Notes under the pieces: generated by a model
What the model saw: only the letters and a program-made list of their open reading frames with translations
What the model was told of the DNA's origin: nothing
The model's database searches: none
Part shown: in pieces, positions 9,408-39,675 of the stretch
Layout: every line of letters starts with the position of its first letter
Numbering within the stretch: the first letter of the stretch is position 1
NCBI GenBank assembly: GCA_945787555.1
Contig: CALZJG010000122.1
Coordinates: 5,674-69,673, forward strand
DNA length: 64,000 nucleotides
Direction of reading: 5' to 3'
Origin: an uncultured Chromatiaceae bacterium
GTDB taxonomy: Bacteria; Pseudomonadota; Gammaproteobacteria; DRLM01
Position numbers and translations under genes: made by a program

Positions 9408-9510
9408 GACAGAGCAAGCCGTCTACCGCCGAGTGGTCTTCTAACATAGAAATATCACCCACTTAAACTATCGCTCCTAGCATCCGCTAACCTCTGAGAG
9501 CGTAACCATC

Positions 9511-9903
9511 ATGAGCACGACAAGCACATCAACCAAGGTCGCCACCCGCGCCCTCATCGTAGAAGACGACGCCAACATGGCGCGTGCGATTCAACGCGTG
9601 TTGCGCGGTGCCGGCTTCGACACCGCCGTTGCGGACTCGGGTTTCGAGGCCGGCGTGTTGCTGATGCAATACCAACCGCAGTTCATCACCTTGGATCTGC
9701 AAATGCCCGGCATGAACGGCCAGGAAGTGCTGGACTGTTTACGCAGCACCGAGTCACTCTGGGATATAAAAGTCTTAATCATTTCTGGCTTGCCGCTCGA
9801 TGAGCTGCGCGCGATGCTCGACCAGGGCGCCGATGACATCCTGCACAAGCCTTTCGATAATCGCACCTTATTGGAAAAGGTTACGCAACTCGCCGGGAAG
9901 TGA
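9511..9903 (+). CDS. single-domain response regulator (CheY-like receiver only)
   Basis: 130 aa; EDD acidic pocket, phospho-acceptor Asp in ITLDLQMPGMNG, conserved Lys in ILHKPF. Confidence 0.8.
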   Translation: MSTTSTSTKVATRALIVEDDANMARAIQRVLRGAGFDTAVADSGFEAGVLLMQYQPQFITLDLQMPGMNGQEVLDCLRSTESLWDIKVLIISGLPLDELRAMLDQGADDILHKPFDNRTLLEKVTQLAGK

Positions 9904-15972: not shown

Positions 15973-17061
15973 TTAGATTTGAACTTGCAGCCCAACCTTA
16001 AACATCGAGAAATCACTGGCCGCGCCGCCCGGATCCTGGTTGGAATAGACAACGGAAACACGCGCGTCATGACCCTTGATCACGTAGTTAAAGCCCACGT
16101 CCATACGCTCCAATTCATCACCCCCATCGACATCGAAACTTTGGAAGCGCACCAATGGTTGGATTCGGCCGATGCCGAGCGGGGTCGGAAAGAGATAACT
16201 TCCCAACACCATATAACTGCTGCCTTGGGTCAGCGAGGCATCGGCAATGTCATCAGTGTCGTAGTCATAGTAGGCCGCTTCGAAAGTCGGCACACCGCCA
16301 TTGCCCAGCTTCTTCTCCGCCAACACATCGACGCTCCAGCCCGCAAAATCACCGGGCGTGGCCGCCGTGCCGACACCATCGGCTTGCGACATCATCACCA
16401 CGCCCACGGCCAACACATCTTTGGCGCCGTAATAGGTGCTGCTGTTGTAATAGCCGGGCTCGGGTTCCCAGAAGTTGTACGTCAAGCGACCGGCGGCGAG
16501 CATGTTATCCGAGTCGTTGGCGCCACCCTGGCGGCCCTCGAACAAACCGACTTGGTATTTGAATTTTCCACCGCCGGTTTGCCCCCACACCGCCACGCCA
16601 TCGTCGCGTCCGGCGAAGACCGCAGGAAAGGCTTGAGCCACTGGGAAATCCCAAGCATTGAGGTAATAGGGGCCACTCAGATTAGAACGATCGCTGGGCG
16701 GGAGGAAACGACCGGCCCACACGTTGAATCCATCGGAAAACTCCAAACGCGCGATAGCATCAAGCACATGCACCTCTTCAGCGCTGCGCTCGGTGTTGAA
16801 GGTGAAATAGACGTTTTCATAAGCTTGACCGCTGATGTACAAGCGCACACTTTCGACCTCAAAGTCCTTGCTGTAGTCATCCCCGCTGGGGGCAGCGTCT
16901 TCCACCATGGCGAAACTGGTACGCAGACCCGCCCCGACGCTGACCGATTGATTGGGACCAATCTGTATCGTCCCACCCGCCTGCACCGATGGCGCAACGG
17001 TGGCCGCAAGGGAGCTCAACGCCAGCGGGAAGATATATGCGTGCTTCCATGAAGGGTTCAT
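15973..17061 (-). CDS. outer-membrane porin (OprO/P-like or FmdC-like short-chain amide/urea porin candidate)
   Basis: Start MNPSWKHAYIFPLALSSLAATVAPSVQA (signal peptide); amphipathic beta-strand pattern rich in Tyr/Gly. The stop is 17 nt upstream of the urtA start, so likely co-transcribed. Confidence 0.6.
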   Translation of the reverse strand: MNPSWKHAYIFPLALSSLAATVAPSVQAGGTIQIGPNQSVSVGAGLRTSFAMVEDAAPSGDDYSKDFEVESVRLYISGQAYENVYFTFNTERSAEEVHVLDAIARLEFSDGFNVWAGRFLPPSDRSNLSGPYYLNAWDFPVAQAFPAVFAGRDDGVAVWGQTGGGKFKYQVGLFEGRQGGANDSDNMLAAGRLTYNFWEPEPGYYNSSTYYGAKDVLAVGVVMMSQADGVGTAATPGDFAGWSVDVLAEKKLGNGGVPTFEAAYYDYDTDDIADASLTQGSSYMVLGSYLFPTPLGIGRIQPLVRFQSFDVDGGDELERMDVGFNYVIKGHDARVSVVYSNQDPGGAASDFSMFKVGLQVQI

Positions 17062-17681
17062 TATTTCAATTCTCCTGTCTCTTGTTTTGATCAAAGACCG
17101 CCACGACGGCTGAAGCCTCACTAAATGTGTGCTGCATGGACTACTAAGTTGCGGTGTCGCCAACCCAGCACTTTGCCTGCAAAAGCGACGCCAACAAGCC
17201 AACCCTCACTTCAGCGTGATGCAAAACAAGTGGATAGCAAATACTCTTTACCAACGATTAAGAATTCGCACTATCGGGCGCGCGCCACGTTGGTGCGAGC
17301 GCGACATGCTGAGCGCAAAAATGGTGCGCCGACATTCGCATTACGAATGACACCCCACCATTATGTGGATATACCCACAACAGATTCTGCGAGTCGCCCT
17401 CAGCCCATATCCACACAACGTTTGCACTCATCAACAAGCGAGGCTGCATATTCACCCAACCCAGCAAAAAACTTCGACCTCCTAGAGGCATACGTTTCGC
17501 GTCATGGAGTGCACTCAGCCAACCTCAAACTCGACACAGCACATGTAACGATGCTCCAGAACATTCCTTACGCTTCGACAATCCCCATCATCTTGGGCAC
17601 TTTCTACCCTGTAATCCGATTCGTGAAGACGAAGAGACGGGCGTCACGCATCCTTGCGCGCCACCGGCCACTATCACGTGC

Positions 17682-18461
17682 CTAGATGTCGAACCCATAG
17701 CTCACGCCTAGGACCACAGTGTCTTCCTGATCGTTATCTTGCCTATCCTTGCCGCCGATCACGTAGGTGATGCTCATATCGGCGCCGGTCTGCGCGATGG
17801 GATGCGAAAGGGTCAGGTTAAAATGGCGAAATGCGGAGTCCTTGGCCGAAGAGGGGATGAAATCACCTTCTTCCTCGTAGGTGTAGTAACCCAGGCTGGC
17901 GTTGAAAGCGAAATCCTTGGGCAGAGCGGCATCGTAATCCAAGGTCCAATAAATATCGCCGGTATTGCCCCAAGCTGCGTCCTCGGTGAGATACTTGAAT
18001 CCCGCGGTAACAGGGCCGTAGCCTAGACTTCCCACCACCTCCAAGGCGTCTGAATCTTCCACTTCGATGTAGTAGTACTGTATCAAGCCGATGTCATAGC
18101 TCAAGCCAGCGGCCTCGCCGGCATAGCCAACGTAGAAATTATTCTCGAAGCCGGTGGCGCTGGTTGCATTGCCGTAATCCAAATTGGAGCCCCAATATCC
18201 GGCGTAAACTCCACTTTCATGACTCCAGTCCAACCCTCCTTGCACGGTTGTGCCGTCGTTCTCGGTGTCGGCCGTGATGCCGCGCAAGACATACTTGGAA
18301 AACACGCCGATGTTGCCGGACAGTTCCGCGCTGGCCAGCGCCGGCGCCATGACCGCGGTGCCCGCCAAAACCGTGGCCAAACCGAATTTAGTTAGCTTGT
18401 GTGAATTGCGTGTTGTCACTGGAATGATCTCCTCGTTGTTCGTTGATACTGATTTCCCCAC
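17682..18461 (-). CDS. TorF-family / TIGR02001 outer-membrane beta-barrel protein
   Basis: LSGNIGVFSKYVLRGITADTENDGTTVQGGLDWSHESGVYAGYWGSNL matches the TorF/gcw_chp family signature; C-terminus VLGVSYGFDI. The true start may be later than M1, since the unusual MGKSVSTNNEE leader precedes the signal peptide. Confidence 0.65.
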   Translation of the reverse strand: MGKSVSTNNEEIIPVTTRNSHKLTKFGLATVLAGTAVMAPALASAELSGNIGVFSKYVLRGITADTENDGTTVQGGLDWSHESGVYAGYWGSNLDYGNATSATGFENNFYVGYAGEAAGLSYDIGLIQYYYIEVEDSDALEVVGSLGYGPVTAGFKYLTEDAAWGNTGDIYWTLDYDAALPKDFAFNASLGYYTYEEEGDFIPSSAKDSAFRHFNLTLSHPIAQTGADMSITYVIGGKDRQDNDQEDTVVLGVSYGFDI

Positions 18462-18640
18462 GGCGGACTAAGCCGCCCTATCCAAAATCATTGCAACAAA
18501 CTAGGAGGCACCAACCATGCCAATTCATATTTCACGCCGTCGTACGGCGACTTAGCTCGATTCTTCTGATTTGCGCCCGAATAAAATGCACTTAAATGAG
18601 GCGCAAAGCAACACATCCACAATAGAATGGTGCGCTTGAA

Positions 18641-19255
18641 TCAGGCGCTCGCCAACAGTCCTTCACGTTCTATAAACCTGATCACCCCATCAACCCCCAC
18701 ACCGCGCTTAAGATCGGTGAAGATAAATGGCCGGTCATCACGCATACGGCGCGCGTCCTGATCCATGACGTCCAACGAAGCACCGACATGAGGCGCGAGA
18801 TCAATTTTATTGATTACTAATAGATCAGACTTGGTAATACCTGGCCCGCCCTTGCGCGGTATCTTTTCGCCAGCCGCCACGTCAATCACATAGATCGTCA
18901 AATCGGATAGCTCGGGACTGAATGTCGCGCTGAGATTGTCACCGCCACTCTCGATCAACACCAAATCCAAATCGGGAAAGCGGCGACACAGCTCTTCCAC
19001 GGCGGCAAGATTCGCCGAGGCATCCTCACGGATAGCGGTGTGCGGACAACCACCGGTCTCCACACCAATAATGCGCTCCGGCGTCAGCGCATCGTGACGA
19101 ACTAGAAACTGCGCATCCTCCTTGGTGTAGATATCATTGGTCACCGCCGCGATTTGATAGCGCTCACGCAGGGTGCGGCACAGCGCCAACATCAAGGCGG
19201 TCTTGCCCGATCCCACCGGCCCGCCGACACCGATACGCAATACGGATTGAGCCAT
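18641..19255 (-). CDS. ureG: urease accessory GTPase UreG
   Basis: 204 aa; P-loop GPVGSGKT and conserved ETGGCPH motif. Confidence 0.92.
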
Positions 19256-19278
19256 GCTGAAACTCCAGATGTATTGAT

Positions 19279-19404
19279 AAGCACGGAGGACACGGACATC
19301 ACGAAGATAGAATTGAATAGGAAGCTATTGGGCGAGCACGCTGTACCAGTGTCGTATCAACGATCCAATGACTCCGCTGTCTTCTCCGTGTTCTCCGTGG
19401 TTAA
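19279..19404. repeat. intercistronic inverted-repeat element, copy A (ureF|ureG)
   Basis: Arms AAGCACGGAGGACACGGA ... TCTTCTCCGTGTTCTCCGTGGTTAA are mutually complementary (14 of 15) and flank an ~85-nt core. Both arms are repeated at 20534-20610. Confidence 0.6.
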
Positions 19405-19408
19405 CTCT

Positions 19409-20098
19409 TCAAGAACGAAACAAACGCGAATACTGCGTCTCGTGCAGGGCGCTACCTATAGCCAGGCGCGGCGCGGCATAGCCTATCTCATCATCGGCTA
19501 GCGCCAGACCTTCATCGACGACCGTAGGAATTTCCATTACGACGCGCGACAGGATGCGCTGACCTGCGGTCTGCCCCAACGGCACCAACTTGATCGCCGC
19601 CGCCACTTGCGCTTCACACCACGCCCAAAGATAACCGCTCACCGCCTCGGGCAAGGCGATGCGCCACTCCGCCGCCGCCAGCGCGAACAGTACAGCGTAA
19701 CCGGTGTGCGCATGCGGCACCCAAGGCGCCGCCTGCGGCAACTCCAAGTCGCGCAGCAAGCGCGCCAAGGCCGCGCCCAAATGACCATCCTCTTCCTGCA
19801 ACTCGCGCGCCTCACGACTGGCGTGCAGCATGGCGCTCCAATATTCCAACGCCTCCTCATCGTAGCTTGACCAGGCAGCATAGAGCCGCGCCAATACCGG
19901 CGCATCCAAACGCGCCAAGCCATTACACAATAAACCGCAGATCCAATCGCGCGCGGTGGCCTCATCATGTACCCAGCGCGCATTCACCGCATACTCTAAT
20001 CCCTGCGAATAGGCGAACGCACCCACCGGCAAGGCCGGACTGGTCAATTGCAGCAAACGCAATAACGCCGCTCGCTTGGCATTGCTGTCAGTGTTCAT
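19409..20098 (-). CDS. ureF: urease accessory protein UreF
   Basis: Start MNTDSNAKRAALLRLLQLTSPALPVGAFAYSQGLE is the canonical UreF N-terminus. The listed ORF carries a spurious 45-aa extension. Overlaps ureE by 11 nt. Confidence 0.85.
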   Translation of the reverse strand: MNTDSNAKRAALLRLLQLTSPALPVGAFAYSQGLEYAVNARWVHDEATARDWICGLLCNGLARLDAPVLARLYAAWSSYDEEALEYWSAMLHASREARELQEEDGHLGAALARLLRDLELPQAAPWVPHAHTGYAVLFALAAAEWRIALPEAVSGYLWAWCEAQVAAAIKLVPLGQTAGQRILSRVVMEIPTVVDEGLALADDEIGYAAPRLAIGSALHETQYSRLFRS

Positions 20099-20516
20099 GA
20101 CGATAAGCTCCGGCTTCGGGCTCGAAGGACGTGTCTTCGCAATCGATGTGCAAACCCAAACCACGCACCATGTCATCCAAGACATGGTCACGCCCGTAAC
20201 GCAGCCAGCCCGCGCCAACTTGCACCGGCACATGACGATTACCTAAGTGATAGGCCGCGCGCGCCAACACCAGGGCGTCATCGCTGCGCGCTGTGGACAC
20301 CGCCTCCGCTGCGGCGCGCACGGCAATCAACTCGCCGTTCTCGGCGCGCAACACATCACCGCCGCGCAACACCGTGCCGCGCACCAGCAGCAGCGCCGCC
20401 TCCCGCCCATCATCGAGGCGCACGCGCTGACGGCTCTTCTGGCGTTGCTCGAAGGGCAATGTCAACACCGCCTCACATTCGGCACTTTCAGCGACGCGCT
20501 CGACGATCTCCAGCAT
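20088..20516 (-). CDS. ureE: urease accessory protein UreE (no His-rich tail)
   Basis: 142 aa; LTLPFEQRQKSRQRVRLDDG motif of the UreE N-domain. Confidence 0.85.
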   Translation of the reverse strand: MLEIVERVAESAECEAVLTLPFEQRQKSRQRVRLDDGREAALLLVRGTVLRGGDVLRAENGELIAVRAAAEAVSTARSDDALVLARAAYHLGNRHVPVQVGAGWLRYGRDHVLDDMVRGLGLHIDCEDTSFEPEAGAYRHEH

Positions 20517-20533
20517 TCAATGGCCCCTAACTA

Positions 20534-20610
20534 AGCAGGGAGGACACAGAGGAGCAATGCTCGCGTTCAATAGCACTCCAAATAATCTTCTCCGTGTTCT
20601 CGGTGGTTAA
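20534..20610. repeat. intercistronic inverted-repeat element, copy B (ureC|ureE)
   Basis: AAGCAGGGAGGACACAGA ... TCTTCTCCGTGTTCTCGGTGGTTAA; same arms as copy A with a shorter core. Begins 6 nt after the ureC stop. Confidence 0.6.
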
Positions 20611-20616
20611 TCATGT

Positions 20617-22320
20617 TCAAAACAAGAAATACCGCTGCGCCAGTGGCAACTCACTGGCCGGCTCGCATTGCAACAACACGCCGTCGGCGCGCACTTCATA
20701 AGTTTGGGCATCGACTTCCATCCGCGGCTGGTAATGATTATGAATCAAATCGGCCTTGCGTACCGCGCGCGTGCCGCGCACTTCGACCAGACGTTTTTGC
20801 AAACCCAGCGCCTCGCCCACACCGGCCTGCAGGGCGGCTTGCGAAACAAAGGTCACGCTGGTCGCCGTGAGCGCTGCACCATAGGCGCCGAACATATTGC
20901 GATAGTGTACCGGCTGTGGTGTGGGTATCGAGGCATTCGGATCACCCATGGGAGCGGCGGCGATCATGCCACCCTTGATGATCAGACTGGGCTTGGCGCC
21001 AAAGAAGGCCGGCTTCCACAACACGATGTCGGCCAACTTGCCCGCTTCGATCGAGCCTACTTCGTGGGCGATGCCGTGAGTAATGGCGGGATTGATGGTG
21101 TACTTGGCCACATAACGCTTGGCGCGATAATTATCGTGCTGCGCAGTGTCTTCCGCCAATGCGCCGCGTTGCGTTTTCATTTTATGCGCGGTTTGCCAGG
21201 TGCGTGTGATGACCTCACCGACGCGCCCCATGGCCTGTGAATCAGAAGCAATCATACTGAAGGCACCGAGATCGTGGAGAAGGTCCTCGGCGGCAATGGT
21301 CTCGCGACGGATGCGCGATTCGGCGAAGGCCACGTCCTCGGCGATGTTGGGATCGAGATGATGACAGACCATCAACATGTCGAGGTGCTCATCGACCGTG
21401 TTGATGGTGTAAGGCCGCGTGGGATTGGTGGACGAGGGCAGCACATTGGCCTCGCCACAGGCCTTAATAATATCCGGCGCGTGACCGCCGCCGGCGCCCT
21501 CAGTGTGATAAGTGTGAATGGCGCGCCCCTTGAACGCGGCAAGCGTATCTTCGACGAAGCCCGATTCGTTGAGCGTGTCGGTATGGATGGCCACTTGCAC
21601 GTCGTATTGCTCGGCGACGTTCAAGCAATTGTCAATGGCCGCCGGCGTGGTACCCCAATCCTCGTGTAATTTTAAACCCATCGCCCCCGCGACGACTTGC
21701 TCCTCCAACGAGGCGGGCAGACTGGCGTTGCCTTTGCCGAGAAAACCCAGATTCATGGGCAAGCCTTCCGCCGCCTGCAGCATGCGCTGGATATGCCATG
21801 GCCCCGGCGTGCAGGTGGTGGCGTTGGTGCCCGCCGCCGGCCCGGTGCCGCCGCCCAACATGGTGGTGACGCCGCTCATCAGCGCCTCCTCCACTTGTTG
21901 CGGGCAGATGAAATGGATATGCGCGTCGAGACCGCCGGCAGTGGCGATCAAGCCTTCACCGGCGATCACCTCGGTGCCCGCGCCGATGACGATGTTCACA
22001 CCCGGCTGGATATCGGGGTTGCCCGCCTTGCCGATGGCGGCGATGCGCCCATGCTTGATGCCGATGTCGGCTTTAACCACACCCCAGTGATCGAGGATCA
22101 GCGCATTGGTGATCACCGTATCTGCGACCTCTTGTGAGGCGCGCTGACTCTGCCCCATGCCATCGCGGATGACCTTGCCACCACCGAATTTCACCTCTTC
22201 ACCATAAACGGTGTGATCTTGTTCCACCGCGATCCATAAGGCAGTATCGCCGAGCCTAATCCGATCACCCACCGTCGGTCCGTACATTTCCGCATAAGCA
22301 CGCCGCGTGATCTTGCTCAT
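20617..22320 (-). CDS. ureC: urease alpha subunit
   Basis: 567 aa; active-site MVCHHLD, Ni-ligand histidines, HEDWG motif. Confidence 0.95.
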
Positions 22321-22634
22321 GATTTTTTCTCCACCGTGCCCATCACCCGGCCTTGAAAACCGTATACGCGTCGCTCGCCCGCATACGCCACCAACTCCAC
22401 CGCACGACGCTGACCGGGCTCGAAACGCACTGCCGTGCCAGCGGCGATGTTGAGGCGCATGCCACGCGCTTGCTCGCGATCGAAATGCAAAGCGTTGTTA
22501 GTTTCGTAGAAGTGATAATGCGACCCGACTTGGATCGGCCGGTCGCCGCTATTGGTGACGCTAAGGCGTAAAGTCACGCGCCCTGTGTTCAACTCGATGT
22601 CGCCGTCGGCGGTTTGGATTTCGCCTGGAATCAT
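22317..22634 (-). CDS. ureB: urease beta subunit
   Basis: Start MIPGEIQ preceded by AAGGAGAG SD. The longer ORF start at 22655 would place the SD inside the coding region. ATGA overlap with ureC. Confidence 0.88.
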
Positions 22635-22857
22635 GTGGCTCTCCTTGGATGTCATATCCCACGCAAAGCTGCAAAGATAGCTCCGATTAAGATCGCCCGC
22701 TCATCTTTTCCCACATTGCGCCTTTGCGGTAAATGACCATGAAGCATATGTAGCCTGGATGGAACGAAATGGAACCCGGGTATTGCCGCGCGACGCCCAG
22801 GCGACACGCCTGGCGCAAGAAGCCATTGGGCGGCGCCCCATTCCCGGCCTTGCCTCC

Positions 22858-23160
22858 TCACACAATGGGATTGTGCACCGTCACCAGTTTGGTGCCATCG
22901 GGAAATGTCGCTTCCACTTGCACTTCGGGAATCATTTCCGCCACGCCGTCCATCACCTCCTCGCGGCTGAGCAAGGTCGCTCCGTGACTCATCAATTCCG
23001 CCACGGTTCGGCCATCGCGCGCACCTTCCAATATCGCGGCGGAGATGTACGCAACAGCCTCGGGATAATTCAACTTCACGCCGCGCGCCTTGCGCCGTTC
23101 GGCCAGCAAAGCGGCGGTGAACAGCAACAGCTTGTCTTTCTCTCGCGGTGTCAGCTCCAT
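22858..23160 (-). CDS. ureA: urease gamma subunit
   Basis: 100 aa [35 protein letters not shown]..., near-canonical UreA. Confidence 0.92.
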
Positions 23161-23418
23161 ACCTGCTCCAAAAATACGCCGTTGATCCGGCCATGGCCTA
23201 TGCGACCTGACCTCTTCACTCGCTCTCCCGCGGGCGGGGGCAAGGTCACCGAATGAATCTCAACCTTGTCGAGCAACATGGCTCCCTCCTTCGCCACGTC
23301 GCACCCGCCCGCGGACCAGGGGATCTTGATGACGCACAGTTAAGCCATGAGATTCTGCCAAGGTAGCTTGTAGACACGTTAGCGACGGGCCACCCCCACA
23401 TCCTTGTCATTAATCATC

Positions 23419-24273
23419 TCATGTCGCCCATATACGCGGCGCGCAGACGGGCCGTTGCAACACCGCGGGCCGCAGCACAGACCACGCCTTTTCGAAACAC
23501 TGCCGCGCCTCTTCGGCATGATCCCCCAGATAGCGGCACACCACCACACCGTCCAACAGCGTGACGCTGAACAAGCCCACCTCGAACCGCGCCGCCTCGC
23601 GCACTAGCTCAATGCACTCGGCTTCATTCGTGACGCAAAGCAGGGTACCGCTTACCGAGTGACCCGCCAACCCCCACGGCGCCGTGAGCACGGCGCCATT
23701 CTGCTCATAACGTGCACGCTCAATATAAAGCGGCAAACCGTCCCGCCATAACTCGAATCGCTGGCGCACGCCGCCTTGCTGAAATTTCTCGCCTGAACCC
23801 GGTCTGCCCAAGCACATTATTTCCCAGCCTAAGAAACCTGCCCCGGGCGCCAGCTCAACCAGTGTATTCAATTCAGCGCGCGCGCCGTCATAGACGATGG
23901 TTTCTTGCGGCAGCCACTCCAGCGCCGCGCCCGACGCCACGCGCAAGTGCTGCGTCTGCCGTGCACCCGCCCCCCCACTGCGATAAAACTTTCCGGCCGC
24001 CGGTGTCGTGAGCAGGGCGTGCGCGCCTTGAGCCACCTCGATATCGATCGACAATTCATCGCCGCCCACCACGCCGCCGGGCGGATGTAGCACATATACA
24101 TGACAGACGTTTTCGCCTTCGGGATAGAACGGCCGCTGCACCCGCAGTGGTCCATGATGGGAGCGATGCGCCAACACAGAACGGCTGGCGCGCGCTGCAA
24201 AGACCAGGCTCAAGCCGGCCTGCCATCCTGCGGCATGTGGGTGTTCACTTGCTTTTGCATGGGCGTGCAGCAT
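23419..24273 (-). CDS. ureD: urease accessory protein UreD/UreH
   Basis: 284 aa; UreD family (LHPPGGVVGGDELSIDIEV, GWEIMCLGR). Confidence 0.85.
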   Translation of the reverse strand: MLHAHAKASEHPHAAGWQAGLSLVFAARASRSVLAHRSHHGPLRVQRPFYPEGENVCHVYVLHPPGGVVGGDELSIDIEVAQGAHALLTTPAAGKFYRSGGAGARQTQHLRVASGAALEWLPQETIVYDGARAELNTLVELAPGAGFLGWEIMCLGRPGSGEKFQQGGVRQRFELWRDGLPLYIERARYEQNGAVLTAPWGLAGHSVSGTLLCVTNEAECIELVREAARFEVGLFSVTLLDGVVVCRYLGDHAEEARQCFEKAWSVLRPAVLQRPVCAPRIWAT

Positions 24274-24698
24274 GTCCCGTCCCCACCTTGAAAGCTATGG
24301 CATTTCGCGCAAGCCATGCGCCAACGACAAATGATTTTTCGCTCTATCTTGAGACGCGGCGGCTAGGTTACGGCACCAGCATGGTCTATCCCATAGCAGA
24401 CATTTCCGCGAGCGGGCCATGCACAACACCAATAAAGCACGGTGTTGCACCAAGAACGATCTCAACCAGGACACTTTCATCACCACCATGCGCATGTAAT
24501 AAATGAACGGGGAGGAAGCGCCTGCCTAGTCACATCCATACCGCGCTCGCCTTAAACGTCGTGGCAAAGCGCACGATTGCATCAATGGGATCACGGCATC
24601 ATGCCCCGGCAGCGAAACAGGCGGGACATACTGTCTTTGTCCTCCACAACCCGCAATCATCTCACTTGAAGCAGTGAGCCATGCGATTTGACCGGTAA

Positions 24699-25064
24699 CT
24701 AGGTGTTGTCCTTGATAGTGGTAGTCGCGCCATTGGTCATAACTGACTTAATGCCATCGTCACGGGATTGCGCCGTTGCGTACATTTGACCAGTGCCTAT
24801 GATCTGATGGTTTGCCGCTTTCAAATTAAAATAGTGCTTACCATTTGAAGACTCCTTTTTGTCGTAGCGATCATCCGCGGCACAGTTTTTCTGCACAGAG
24901 GCGATACCGTTCTCGGCAGATCCTTTAGACTTATAGAGTTCACTCTTTAAGATGGTCTCCGCATTGCCAGCCTTGAGAACGAACCGGAACTGACCATCAC
25001 TGCTATTACTCAACTCGTACCAACCTGCCATATCTTTCTCCTTGGTTGTGAAGGTGATTGACAC
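24699..25064 (-). CDS. YegP/DUF1508 (UPF0339) family protein, two tandem ~50-aa repeats
   Basis: Internal duplication GQFRFVLKAGNAETILKSELYKSKGSAENGIASV / GKHYFNLKAANHQIIGTGQMYATAQSRDDGIKSV typical of YegP. Lies in a ~48% GC block within a ~63% GC genome. Confidence 0.65.
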   Translation of the reverse strand: MSITFTTKEKDMAGWYELSNSSDGQFRFVLKAGNAETILKSELYKSKGSAENGIASVQKNCAADDRYDKKESSNGKHYFNLKAANHQIIGTGQMYATAQSRDDGIKSVMTNGATTTIKDNT

Positions 25065-25920
25065 TCAACGGCCCGAATAGCGGACCGTGCGCGACTGACG
25101 TCTACTTACCACGCGGCGTTGTTCGCGTCGGACGAACATGATAACTACCTGCCGATTTCAAGCAACCCTCCCAGCAAGAACGACCCGCACTCAACCTCGA
25201 GACACGCGCCATCAATACGGGTCATAACGATATTGATCCAGAGAAATTCATGGGTCACCTGGCAATTCTCCGAACTCAACTGATTCAGATGCCCCCCCTT
25301 GGCAACAAGAGGCCGGTAAGACAACGAGTCACAGCATATCACTAGATGCCCGGGGTCGGGCCACGCCCTGCGGACGCGCTTAGGCAGCATCGCGAAATCA
25401 CCCCGAACAGCATACTCCCGCCCGCTTGCGACGGCGGCGGCGGGAAACTACCCGCCGCCGCAGACAACATCTTGCACGCGAACCTTGCGCGCACGCAAAG
25501 CGAAGTCGATTATCCGATCAGCCGTTAAGAGAATTGATTTCCGGCTTATCCATGACGCCCACCCTCTGCATTGTCTCGCGCAGATCCTTGGACTCGACAA
25601 ACGCTGGCGCGCGAGCCATATCTCCCGCCGCGAACAAGAGCACGACGTCGCTGGGGCCATGAGCCTGGACAAGCGGGTCCGGCTATCACGGCAGCGCCGC
25701 TCTAAACGGGCCAAGCACGTCCAAACCGGCGTTGGGTAATGGCGCGTCGACCAGCTTCCGGCTCCGCCACCTCGTGATCATTCAATCGGGAAAATTGCTA
25801 AGCGGCTCCATTCCCTAGGGAGCAGGCCGAGATACGGGGACATGAGTCACACCCTTGTTACTCTCATCCAAACACTCGCCCTGTGAGGCGGCGAGTTTTC
25901 TGCAGACATCTGCAGGCTCA

Positions 25921-38634: not shown

Positions 38635-38934
38635 GGACGCGGTACCGAGTGAGTTAAGCGCAAACATTGGCCGGAGAACTCACCAACACACGCTAAACCC
38701 ATAACCCTAAATAGCTTTTGCAGCTACCCACAAATCCTGTGGATAACTCTGTGGAAACATTGCGACCAAATGTCACAAATGCTCGCCAGCATTGGAGATG
38801 CGCTAACCTGACGGCATTTTGATCATTTGGTCATTCCTATAAAAAACAATGCCTTATGAAAACATCAAGCAAACATGCTGAAACGCACGCCGCAACGGAG
38901 CCAGATGTTTGAACAACTACGCTTTTGTGCATAA

Positions 38935-39675
38935 ATGTCCTTGACAACGCCCACGACGACTCCCCTGCACACTCGCTACGCCGCGCTAGACGTGAGCCGC
39001 GGCATCGCCATCGCGCTCATGGTGATTTATCACTTCAGCTTCGATCTCAATTACTTTCAGCTGGTGAACATCGACTTCTCTCACGACCCTTTCTGGTTGG
39101 GCTCGCGCACGCTCATCCTCAGCCTGTTCCTGGCGCTGATGGGCACGAGCCTGTACCTGGCGGCGGCGCGGCGCTTATCGCTACGGCGCTATCTGCGGCG
39201 TCTCGCCTTACTGGTGCTGTGCGCCGTCCTGGTCAGCGCCGGCAGTTATGCGATATTCCCCGAACGCATGATTTTCTTCGGCGTGCTGCACTTCATCGCC
39301 GTGGCCAGCGTCTTAGGATTGGCCTTCGTGCGCGCCGGCTGGCTCAACGCCGGGCTGGGCGTCGCGCTCATCGGCCTGGGTATCACGGTGCAACATCCCT
39401 GGTTCGACCGGTCCGCCCTGCAATGGCTAGGGCTGATGACCCACAAGCCCGCCACCGAGGATTATGTGCCGCTGCTGCCGTGGTTCGGTGTGGTGCTGCT
39501 CGGCATGTTCTTGGGGAGTCGCCTGTCCGACCGGACTGTACCCCTGCGCCTCATGCGCTGGCAAGCGCACGCACCACTGGCACGCGCCCTCGCCTTCAGC
39601 GGTCGCCATAGCCTGCTCATTTATATGCTGCATCAGCCGATGTTGTTGGCAGGACTGTGGCTGGCGACGGCATGA
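38935..39675 (+). CDS. DUF1624 / heparan-alpha-glucosaminide N-acetyltransferase-like membrane protein
   Basis: 246 aa; 7-8 TM helices; N-terminal RYAALDVSRGIAIALMVIYHFSFDL resembles the DUF1624 acyltransferase-3-like family. Confidence 0.55.
   Translation: MSLTTPTTTPLHTRYAALDVSRGIAIALMVIYHFSFDLNYFQLVNIDFSHDPFWLGSRTLILSLFLALMGTSLYLAAARRLSLRRYLRRLALLVLCAVLVSAGSYAIFPERMIFFGVLHFIAVASVLGLAFVRAGWLNAGLGVALIGLGITVQHPWFDRSALQWLGLMTHKPATEDYVPLLPWFGVVLLGMFLGSRLSDRTVPLRLMRWQAHAPLARALAFSGRHSLLIYMLHQPMLLAGLWLATA

Follow-up and report, generated by a model that had tools for sequence, protein, structure and literature searches.

Hairpin elements between the urease genes of an uncultured Chromatiaceae bacterium belong to a cross-phylum family of intergenic repeats

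The urease (ure) operon of an uncultured Chromatiaceae bacterium lies on the minus strand of contig CALZJG010000122.1, within the 64-kb stretch of DNA analysed here (the window), with its genes in the order ureD, ureA, ureB, ureC, ureE, ureF and ureG. UreG, UreE, UreC and UreB were called with NCBIfam models, and UreF and UreD with Pfam on an identical contig in assembly GCA_947259805.1 and on the contig of a relative (L121); an earlier reading made from the sequence alone (the sequence-only reading) had assigned ureF and ureG, rightly according to these models. Two of the gaps between cistrons each hold a hairpin-forming element: copy A in the ureF-ureG gap (153 nt, 19256-19408) and, 1.2 kb away, the shorter copy B in the ureC-ureE gap (100 nt). 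Coordinates are collected in Table 1, and copies of the element were counted within the window only.

Copy A fills nearly the whole of its gap, as the sequence-only reading had proposed, and begins 4 nt past the ureF stop codon (19411-19409). On the plus strand its ends read AAGCACGGAGGACACGGA (from 19279) and TCTTCTCCGTGTTCTCCGTGGTTAA (19380-19404). The 15-mer CACGGAGGACACGGA and the reverse complement CACGGAGAACACGGA pair at 14 of 15 positions, the figure originally given, and by our count by hand the complementarity of these terminal inverted repeats reaches about 17 of 20. The CCUCC-containing arm (UGUCCGUGUCCUCCGUGCUUA) is the 3' arm in the mRNA and TTAACCACGGAGAACACGGAGAAGA the 5' arm; the latter contains the exact 19-mer CCACNGAGAACACGGAGAAG. 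Copy B begins 6 nt past the ureC stop codon and ends 15 nt ahead of the ureE start codon. In the mRNA sense it consists of TTAACCACCGAGAACACGGAGAAGA and TCCTCTGTGTCCTCCCTGCTTA around a loop of about 30 nt, and its arms pair clearly less well than those of copy A.

Both arms are built of spaced heptamers. The 5' arm is CACGGAG-AA-CACGGAG-AAG in copy A and CACCGAG-AA-CACGGAG-AAG in copy B; the 3' arm is GTCCGTG-TC-CTCCGTG-CTTA and CTCTGTG-TC-CTCCCTG-CTTA, respectively. The 5' arms agree at 24 of 25 positions (96%), and the two copies have in common a deviant 3' arm, GTGTCCTCC(G/C)TGCTTA. When the window was searched with the 25-nt arm at up to 3 mismatches, 2 matches were found compared to 0.00 in shuffled sequence; the 15-nt core CACGGAGRACACGGA, at up to 2 mismatches, matched 4 times (0.28 expected), exactly at the four arms. 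The recurrence of both arms, first noted at 20534-20610, is thus far above the shuffled level. A generic inverted-repeat search of the window did not place either copy among its top 25. The feature stands out from chance through the repetition of its two arms and through belonging to a large family of repeats, rather than through the strength of the stem.

Table 1. Positions of the urease genes, the hairpin elements and their parts in the window; arm sequences are given in the mRNA sense. MFE, minimum free energy.
Feature	Positions	Strand	Length	Basis or sequence
ureG	18641-19255	minus	204 aa	TIGR00101 UreG, E 1.4e-104
Copy A, complete hairpin repeat in ureF-ureG gap	19278-19404	minus	127 nt	sequence, arm recurrence, MFE fold
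Copy A 3' arm	19278-19298	minus		TGTCCGTGTCCTCCGTGCTTA; inverted CTCCGTG-type units
Copy A loop/core	19299-19379	minus	81 nt	not conserved
Copy A 5' arm	19380-19404	minus		TTAACCACGGAGAACACGGAGAAGA; two CACGGAG heptamers, AA spacers
ureF	19409-20098	minus	229 aa	PF01730 on identical contig; homologues found
ureE	20088-20516	minus		NF009751 UreE
Copy B, shorter paralogue in ureC-ureE gap	20532-20610	minus	79 nt	
Copy B 3' arm	20532-20553	minus		TCCTCTGTGTCCTCCCTGCTTA; sequence
Copy B 5' arm	20586-20610	minus		TTAACCACCGAGAACACGGAGAAGA; sequence
ureC, urease alpha subunit	20617-22320	minus		NF009686/TIGR01792
Third, weaker hairpin in ureA-ureB gap	22659-22730	minus		CGCAAAG + 2-nt spacer + GCAA; inverted CTTTGCG

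Both copies belong to a large hairpin-repeat family conserved in sequence. The exact 19-mer CCACNGAGAACACGGAGAAG, searched against one genome per GTDB species, occurs at no fewer than 119 loci compared to about 4 expected by chance (2 x 5.96e11 x 4^-19); a search with a single 19-mer underestimates both the size and the diversity of the family. Judged from record titles among the matches listed, the loci span at least 15 phyla. About 10 of the listed matches fall in coding sequence, for example in a conserved Streptomyces gene, and the rest are intergenic hairpins. Their hosts belong to the Acidobacteriota, Planctomycetota, Chloroflexota, Bacteroidota, Gamma-, Beta- and Alphaproteobacteria, Desulfobacterota, Myxococcota, Armatimonadota, Verrucomicrobiota, Lentisphaerae, Kiritimatiellae, Fibrobacterota, Cloacimonadota, Nitrospirota, Synergistota and others, and include the cultured isolates Pseudoalteromonas atlantica, Botrimarina and Thioalkalivibrio.

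More specifically, the architecture of the family was defined from loci L002-L120 and L142-L154: a 5' arm of at least two CAC-R-GAG units with spacers of 2-3 purines, a 3' arm of inverted CTC-Y-GTG units 20-200 nt downstream, a variable loop, and outer ends of the form (T)NACCAC...GTGGTN(A). Both arms of the window copies fit this description. Where the family has an outer GTGG they carry GTGC or CTGC, and the 3' arm ends in GCTTA instead of GGTTA; the canonical GTGGTTA is found in two orthologues (L123 and L124). An inverted partner matching at 17 or more of 24 positions accompanies 51 of 113 non-coding hits. These partnered elements are 57-626 nt long, 42 of the 51 measuring 57-210 nt, and in their partner arms the heptamer positions are kept at 92-100%, variation being found at the fourth position of the unit (A/G) and in the spacers.

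By a crude ORF (open reading frame) heuristic, the elements stand between tandem, convergent and divergent genes, and many begin no more than about 35 nt from a stop codon. Several genomes hold many copies, and some multi-copy sub-families have longer shared ends. In the gammaproteobacterial metagenome-assembled genome (MAG) JBFWSI01, for instance, a sub-family of about 170 nt (loci L015, L017, L018, L030, L055, L102 and L120) carries a CCACGGAGAACACGGAGAAG module within a longer terminal inverted repeat (TTGCGCTGCGCGCG-CCACGG...), and no target-site duplication is visible in it. Both window copies are flanked by TTA; in other members of the family TNA is part of the inverted repeat. Loci of a Rikenellaceae (L025) and a Binatia (L045) genome show one-directional arrays of 10-14 CAC-R-GAG units with no inverted partner nearby, so that expansion of the units as simple tandem arrays is also possible. 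A phage or plasmid vehicle was rejected: the pattern had one coding-like hit in viral contigs (0 for the reversed control), and blastn of copy A against plasmids returned no match. A literature search found no paper containing the arm sequence or describing the heptamers as an intergenic repeat, and the family is apparently undescribed.

The history of the two sites was read from UreF homologues with fetched contigs (L121-L124) and 16 metagenomic relatives. The ureF-ureG gap carries the same type of arms in L122 (UreF 82% identical, gap 149 nt), L123 (70%, 163 nt; arms TGAACCACGGAAGACACGGAG ... CTCCGTGTCCTCCGTGGTTAT) and L124 (69%, 149 nt), and the ureC-ureE gap of these three (28, 26 and 26 nt) is free of an element. 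In L121 (79%) the ureF-ureG gap is 54 nt long and aligns only at its two ends, including the GCTTA tail shared with copies A and B; the simplest interpretation is that part of the element was deleted internally. The scan of metagenomes for close ure orthologues gave relatives of 50-54% UreF identity only; their ureF-ureG junctions measure 10-25 nt, and they serve solely as element-free outgroups.

At the ureF-ureG site the arms, not the loops, are maintained. Between the window and L123, 41 of 48 arm positions are identical (80% in the 5' arm and 91% in the 3' arm), compared to only 0.45-0.62 at four-fold degenerate sites of ureE, ureF and ureG; set against p ~0.55, this gives P ~1e-5 by our own normal approximation. 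The loop, by contrast, is no more similar to that of L123 than a shuffled one, and the same holds for the copy A loop against those of copy B, L122 and L124. Neither a conserved loop nor an origin of copy B as a simple internal deletion of copy A is tenable with loop identity at the shuffled level.

Copy A is old at its site and copy B recent. Relatives with a UreF identity of at least 69% would share with this genome the ancestor in which copy A entered the ureF-ureG gap. Copy B was found in the window genome only, and subtracting its 79 nt from the 100-nt gap leaves 21 nt, close to the 26-28 nt of the relatives; its flanks are too diverged from theirs to place the exact insertion point or a duplication. 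Because of the deviant 3' arm common to both copies and the 24/25 match of their 5' arms, we infer that copy B derived from an A-like copy within this lineage. The sequence-only reading had named as the sign of mere chance a lack of further copies together with arms unconserved in orthologous ure operons; the arm does recur in other genomes, and the arms are conserved in relatives. In L121 the 138-nt ureC-ureE gap (9445-9582) holds an insert of unlike sequence (AAGCCTAAGGAGGCGCGGAGGC ... CTTCGTGCGCCTAAGC), which suggests that this junction has been colonised repeatedly and independently.

Other gaps of the ure operon were also inspected. Hairpins made of tandem heptamers, sought with a generic scan, were found at 5 sites of the window compared to about 0.5 in shuffles. 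The hairpin in the ureA-ureB gap reads ACCGCAAAGGCGCAA ... TTGCAGCTTTGCGTGG and precedes the likely ureB start by 25 nt; L121 carries CCTTTCGCGCCTTTGCG at the equivalent place, and this hairpin probably also belongs to the family. The ureD-ureA gap (23161-23418) is 258 nt long, compared to 24 nt in L121, and contains a G+C-rich inverted repeat of 19 nt (23228-23246 / 23296-23314, 84% complementary) whose sequence is of another type. Hairpins are therefore found in four of the operon's intercistronic gaps. Just past the ureG stop, at 18567-18610, a near-perfect palindrome without a U run (CTTTGCGCCTCATTTAAGTG/CATTTTATTCGGGCGCAAATCA) may mark the 3' end of the operon.

In other genomes the family is tightly associated with genes for GxxExxY proteins (TIGR04256 / PF13366 PDDEXK_3). 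Clustering of all ORFs within 400 nt of the elements left GxxExxY as the only genuine recurrent neighbour family. Four of the five GxxExxY genes in the pattern loci (L027, L037, L095 and L098) abut or sit inside hairpins of the pattern type; the fifth (L096) is 2 kb from the pattern hit and is flanked by CGC-type variants. The association holds in reverse: all 6 GxxExxY genes picked regardless of repeats (from Colwellia piezophila, Kangiella, a Tenuifilaceae and three metagenomic contigs) either have hairpins or tandem hairpin arrays with the family's architecture on both sides or are nested in a single such hairpin. Within 400 nt of a GxxExxY gene the density of units is 19.2 per kb, compared to 2.4 per kb elsewhere in the same loci. 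Seven hairpins surround the GxxExxY gene of Pseudoalteromonas atlantica, and near-identical copies lacking an ORF are found on another of its contigs. At locus L154 the gene occupies the loop of a single hairpin between two tandem ABC-transporter cistrons; this cassette is the gene-bearing counterpart of the intercistronic elements in the window.

The GxxExxY protein has about 125 aa. Its structural model (pLDDT, the predicted local distance difference test, 91.6) best matches Cas4 SSO0001 and PD-(D/E)XK nucleases of the lambda-exonuclease type, with D, E and K invariant; a search by sequence found no solved structure. The family comprises about 34,000 clusters at 50% identity. PDDEXK_3 (PF13366) has been listed as of unknown function, with multiple transfers between divisions (PMC3424549), and our literature search met GxxExxY, PDDEXK_3 and PF13366 only in passing. 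Some further features of these genes were observed. With their hairpin arrays they often lie within polysaccharide or nucleotide-sugar loci (L142, L144, L146 and L152), next to ManC, Epimerase_2, Poly_export and GDP-mannose dehydratase-like genes, and at L143-L145 they adjoin a PhdYeFM antitoxin. The top-scoring representatives (P0241-P0254) are 240-295 aa long with two matched stretches, and represent either adjacent GxxExxY genes called as one by read-through or tandem fusions.

Taken together, we read copies A and B as belonging, without an ORF of their own, to a widespread family of interspersed hairpin repeats, similar to repetitive extragenic palindromic (REP) sequences or miniature inverted-repeat transposable elements (MITEs) and co-transcribed with the ure genes; we put the probability of this reading at roughly 0.6. 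The element in the window has more the look of a very small selfish DNA element than of a switch specific to urease. The hairpins would be selfish or near-neutral DNA that duplicates into the spaces between genes and between cistrons, often just a few nucleotides past a stop codon, and GxxExxY is a candidate for the trans-acting enzyme that recognises their arms. Co-transcribed with the ure genes, the elements could fold into imperfect 17-20 bp hairpins between cistrons which, by analogy with REP and Correia elements, would uncouple the translation of adjacent cistrons and may serve as 3' barriers or processing sites, while the downstream ribosome-binding site would stay unsequestered.

Of the three roles suggested by the sequence-only reading, that of a tiny MITE comes closest: a paralogue, orthologues and at least 119 loci agree with it, and neither a transposase partner nor a target-site duplication was found for it. 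A classical insertion sequence (IS) or MITE partner was looked for and rejected, as arm pairs 570-1100 nt apart enclose no transposase and one pair encloses a frameshifted GxxExxY gene. Because the linked gene encodes a small PD-(D/E)XK nuclease, a label akin to REP and its REP-associated tyrosine transposase (RAYT) is at least as apt as MITE. A bolder proposal, which we offer tentatively and at clearly less than even odds, is that CAC-R-GAG hairpins are the cis partners of GxxExxY nucleases in an undescribed cross-phylum selfish system of which the ure elements are non-autonomous members. Such a system would consist of gene-in-hairpin cassettes and ORF-less hairpins, and would parallel REP and RAYT with a Cas4-like PD-(D/E)XK enzyme.

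Several observations weigh against interpreting the copies as interspersed repeats with a nuclease partner. Only 2 or 3 copies lie in the 64 kb, all within one operon, and neither a target-site duplication nor a transposase was seen. No GxxExxY gene or remnant was detected in the window and no such gene in L121-L141; the link to GxxExxY is an association across other genomes rather than a demonstrated activity, and the type of unit (CAC or CGC, the latter flanking GxxExxY genes in Bacteroidota loci) tracks the protein clade in a manner confounded with host phylum. The gene contexts rest on the heuristic mentioned above. Finally, the element has been retained at ureF-ureG across deep divergence, an unusual fate for an insertion that is purely selfish, and its arms evolve more slowly than synonymous sites, which could equally reflect a host function at the site or homogenisation by other copies.

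The main rival takes up these last points. The hairpins would be mRNA elements selected by the host, that is, sites of processing or 3' protection that set the amounts of UreABC versus UreEFG, or that slow terminating ribosomes at the ureF and ureC stops, resembling the roles in mRNA stability, termination and processing proposed for REP and Correia repeats. We consider this reading unlikely; it is compatible with a domesticated repeat. Besides the conservation of the ureF-ureG arms far above that of four-fold sites or loops, and the hairpins in four gaps of the operon, the placement of the stems speaks for it. The solid stem begins about 10 nt (copy A) or 16 nt (copy B) past the upstream stop codon, so it does not bracket that codon as the sequence-only reading had supposed, and it ends 22 nt (copy A) or 15 nt (copy B) ahead of the next ATG. 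The ureG Shine-Dalgarno sequence (GGAG, 19266-19263) lies outside the copy A hairpin and stays free. A precedent is offered by Correia elements, which are reported to be bound by RNase III and either cleaved or protected by it (PMC2649163).

Folding, however, does not support a structure selected on the sense strand. The arms do pair in the MFE folds of both copies, as anticipated from the sequence, but neither gap as a whole is more stable than shuffled sequence (z -1.1 for A, -0.6 for B). The antisense strand of copy A folds better than the sense strand (-50.7 vs -40.2 kcal/mol), and sense-strand mismatches across the family show no G.U bias (24 G.U vs 39 A.C). We rejected selected sense-strand RNA structure on these three grounds. 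It is moreover the arm sequence, not mere pairing, that is conserved, and the same sequence is found in unrelated contexts, including divergent promoters; most of the element is gone from L121, and copy B is absent from the other relatives. A scan of 17000-25500 with Rfam 15 (E up to 1) gave no match except 5_ureB_sRNA inside ureC, and canonical family members gave only sub-threshold noise of the microRNA-precursor type. The 5_ureB_sRNA match (RF02514, 94.8 bits, 21885-22171 on the plus strand, antisense to the ureC coding sequence) probably reflects coding conservation of urease alpha against a Helicobacter-built model and is not evidence of a small RNA. No intrinsic terminator overlaps either copy: in place of a U-run, AUCAAUAC comes after the 3' arm of copy A and GUUAGGGG after that of copy B. 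The sequence-only reading had also raised a translational-coupling device; with the cistrons of distant relatives only 10-25 nt apart and the ureG ribosome-binding site outside the hairpin, this is unsupported. The remaining role it raised, an RNA processing or stability element, may plausibly arise as a by-product of co-transcription.

A less probable alternative still is that the ure elements are scars, or empty shells, of GxxExxY cassettes whose loop gene was deleted, the ORF-less form being unable to spread by itself. Gene-in-hairpin cassettes do exist (L154 and L037), the former between two cistrons of an operon, and the mutually unrelated loops of the ure elements are what independent decay would leave. 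Against this, cassettes are far less common among the sampled loci than ORF-less hairpins of 57-210 nt, which form near-identical multi-copy families, copy B looks copied from an A-like element that was already ORF-less (the arm peculiarities being shared), and no GxxExxY remnant is detectable in the window.

Hardly credible, last, is a DNA operator for a urease/nickel regulator or DnaA, or coincidence: the dyad symmetry is suggestive and the outer end TTAACCAC(A/G) agrees with the DnaA box (TTATCCACA) at 7 of 9 positions, but the sites lie between cistrons inside a transcribed operon, neither copy contains a sigma-70-like promoter, in many phyla the same arms stand beside unrelated genes, conservation of the T-rich outer positions needed for a DnaA box is only 45-65% compared to at least 92% for the GAG outside it, and chance is excluded by the window shuffles and the count of loci.

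Elsewhere in the window, an intergenic stretch at 38740-38832, upstream of an ORF starting near 38935, has a DnaA-box-like CTGTGGATAA (reverse complement TTATCCACAG) beside CTCTGTGGAAA, and a hairpin of 9-nt-periodic units, GACCAAATGTCACAAATGC / GCATTTTGATCATTTGGTC, follows.

For the urease operon alone little is at stake: hairpins here stand between cistrons that other bacteria keep tightly coupled, and may change how the transcript is processed and in what proportions the Ure proteins are made. Of wider interest is a non-coding 19-mer common to intergenic hairpins of at least 15 phyla that consistently wrap genes of a very large nuclease family of unknown function. If the link is functional, GxxExxY proteins would gain a testable role, a second partnership of the REP/RAYT kind would be added with a different enzyme fold, and a common unannotated class of repeats in environmental genomes and MAGs would be explained. 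Hairpin repeats of this kind can also break assemblies and mislead gene callers.

Among known systems, REP/REPIN-RAYT (PMC3116915, PMC3337134) is the closest analogue at the level of the system, both being short intergenic hairpin-forming repeats present in many copies in some genomes. In both, a single small nuclease-type gene is itself flanked by repeats while other copies are dispersed. REPs are not known to have a target-site duplication, and none is visible here either. Long vertical persistence has been reported for REPIN-RAYT systems (bioRxiv 10.1101/2021.07.10.451892). According to PMC3733652, REPs occur inside operons, where they are hypothesised to affect mRNA stability, and consist of a 20-40 nt imperfect palindrome that in most REP families bears a GTAG or CGTC tag at one end. 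The hairpin family differs in ending in TNACCAC without a GTAG or CGTC head, and in arms made of spaced 7-nt units that are not self-palindromic. Whereas RAYTs are IS200/IS605-type tyrosine (HUH) transposases, the gene linked here encodes the Cas4-like PD-(D/E)XK protein GxxExxY, and no RAYT was found among the recurrent neighbours of the family loci. REP families are largely lineage-specific, unlike the nearly identical arm sequence seen here across at least 15 phyla.

For behaviour inside mRNAs the closest analogues are the Correia elements of Neisseria (CREE/NEMIS) and the ERIC/IRU elements of enterobacteria, which are likewise about 100-150 bp long, have terminal inverted repeats, lie between genes and are co-transcribed. 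Correia elements, known only from Neisseria, duplicate TA and contain promoter halves as well as IHF sites; the window elements have no promoter-like site and no clear duplication, and their host is an uncultured proteobacterium. We know of no GxxExxY link for Correia or ERIC. Compared without an alignment, Correia elements and the family have only a ...GTGG(A)TTAA-like end motif in common and no further homology. Cleavage or protection of the Correia RNA hairpin by RNase III can change the expression of neighbouring genes (PMC2649163).

For the gene-in-hairpin layout of the GxxExxY cassettes at L154 and L037, the closest analogue is the intervening sequence (IVS) of 23S rRNA. IVSs, known from Leptospira, Coxiella, Salmonella and other bacteria, are long stem-loops inserted into a transcript, sometimes with a small ORF in the loop, whose stems are removed by RNase III. 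They lie in rRNA and their ORF belongs to the four-helix-bundle S23p family, whereas the window elements are ORF-less and lie in mRNA, and the linked family is GxxExxY. The short tandemly repeated repetitive (STRR) sequences of heterocystous cyanobacteria, for which we know of no nuclease partner, are intergenic tandem 7-nt units, sometimes in inverted blocks able to form hairpins. STRR units, for example CCCCAGT, are contiguous without a spacer and restricted to their lineage; the family described here is likewise made of tandem 7-nt intergenic units, but these are spaced and cross-phylum.

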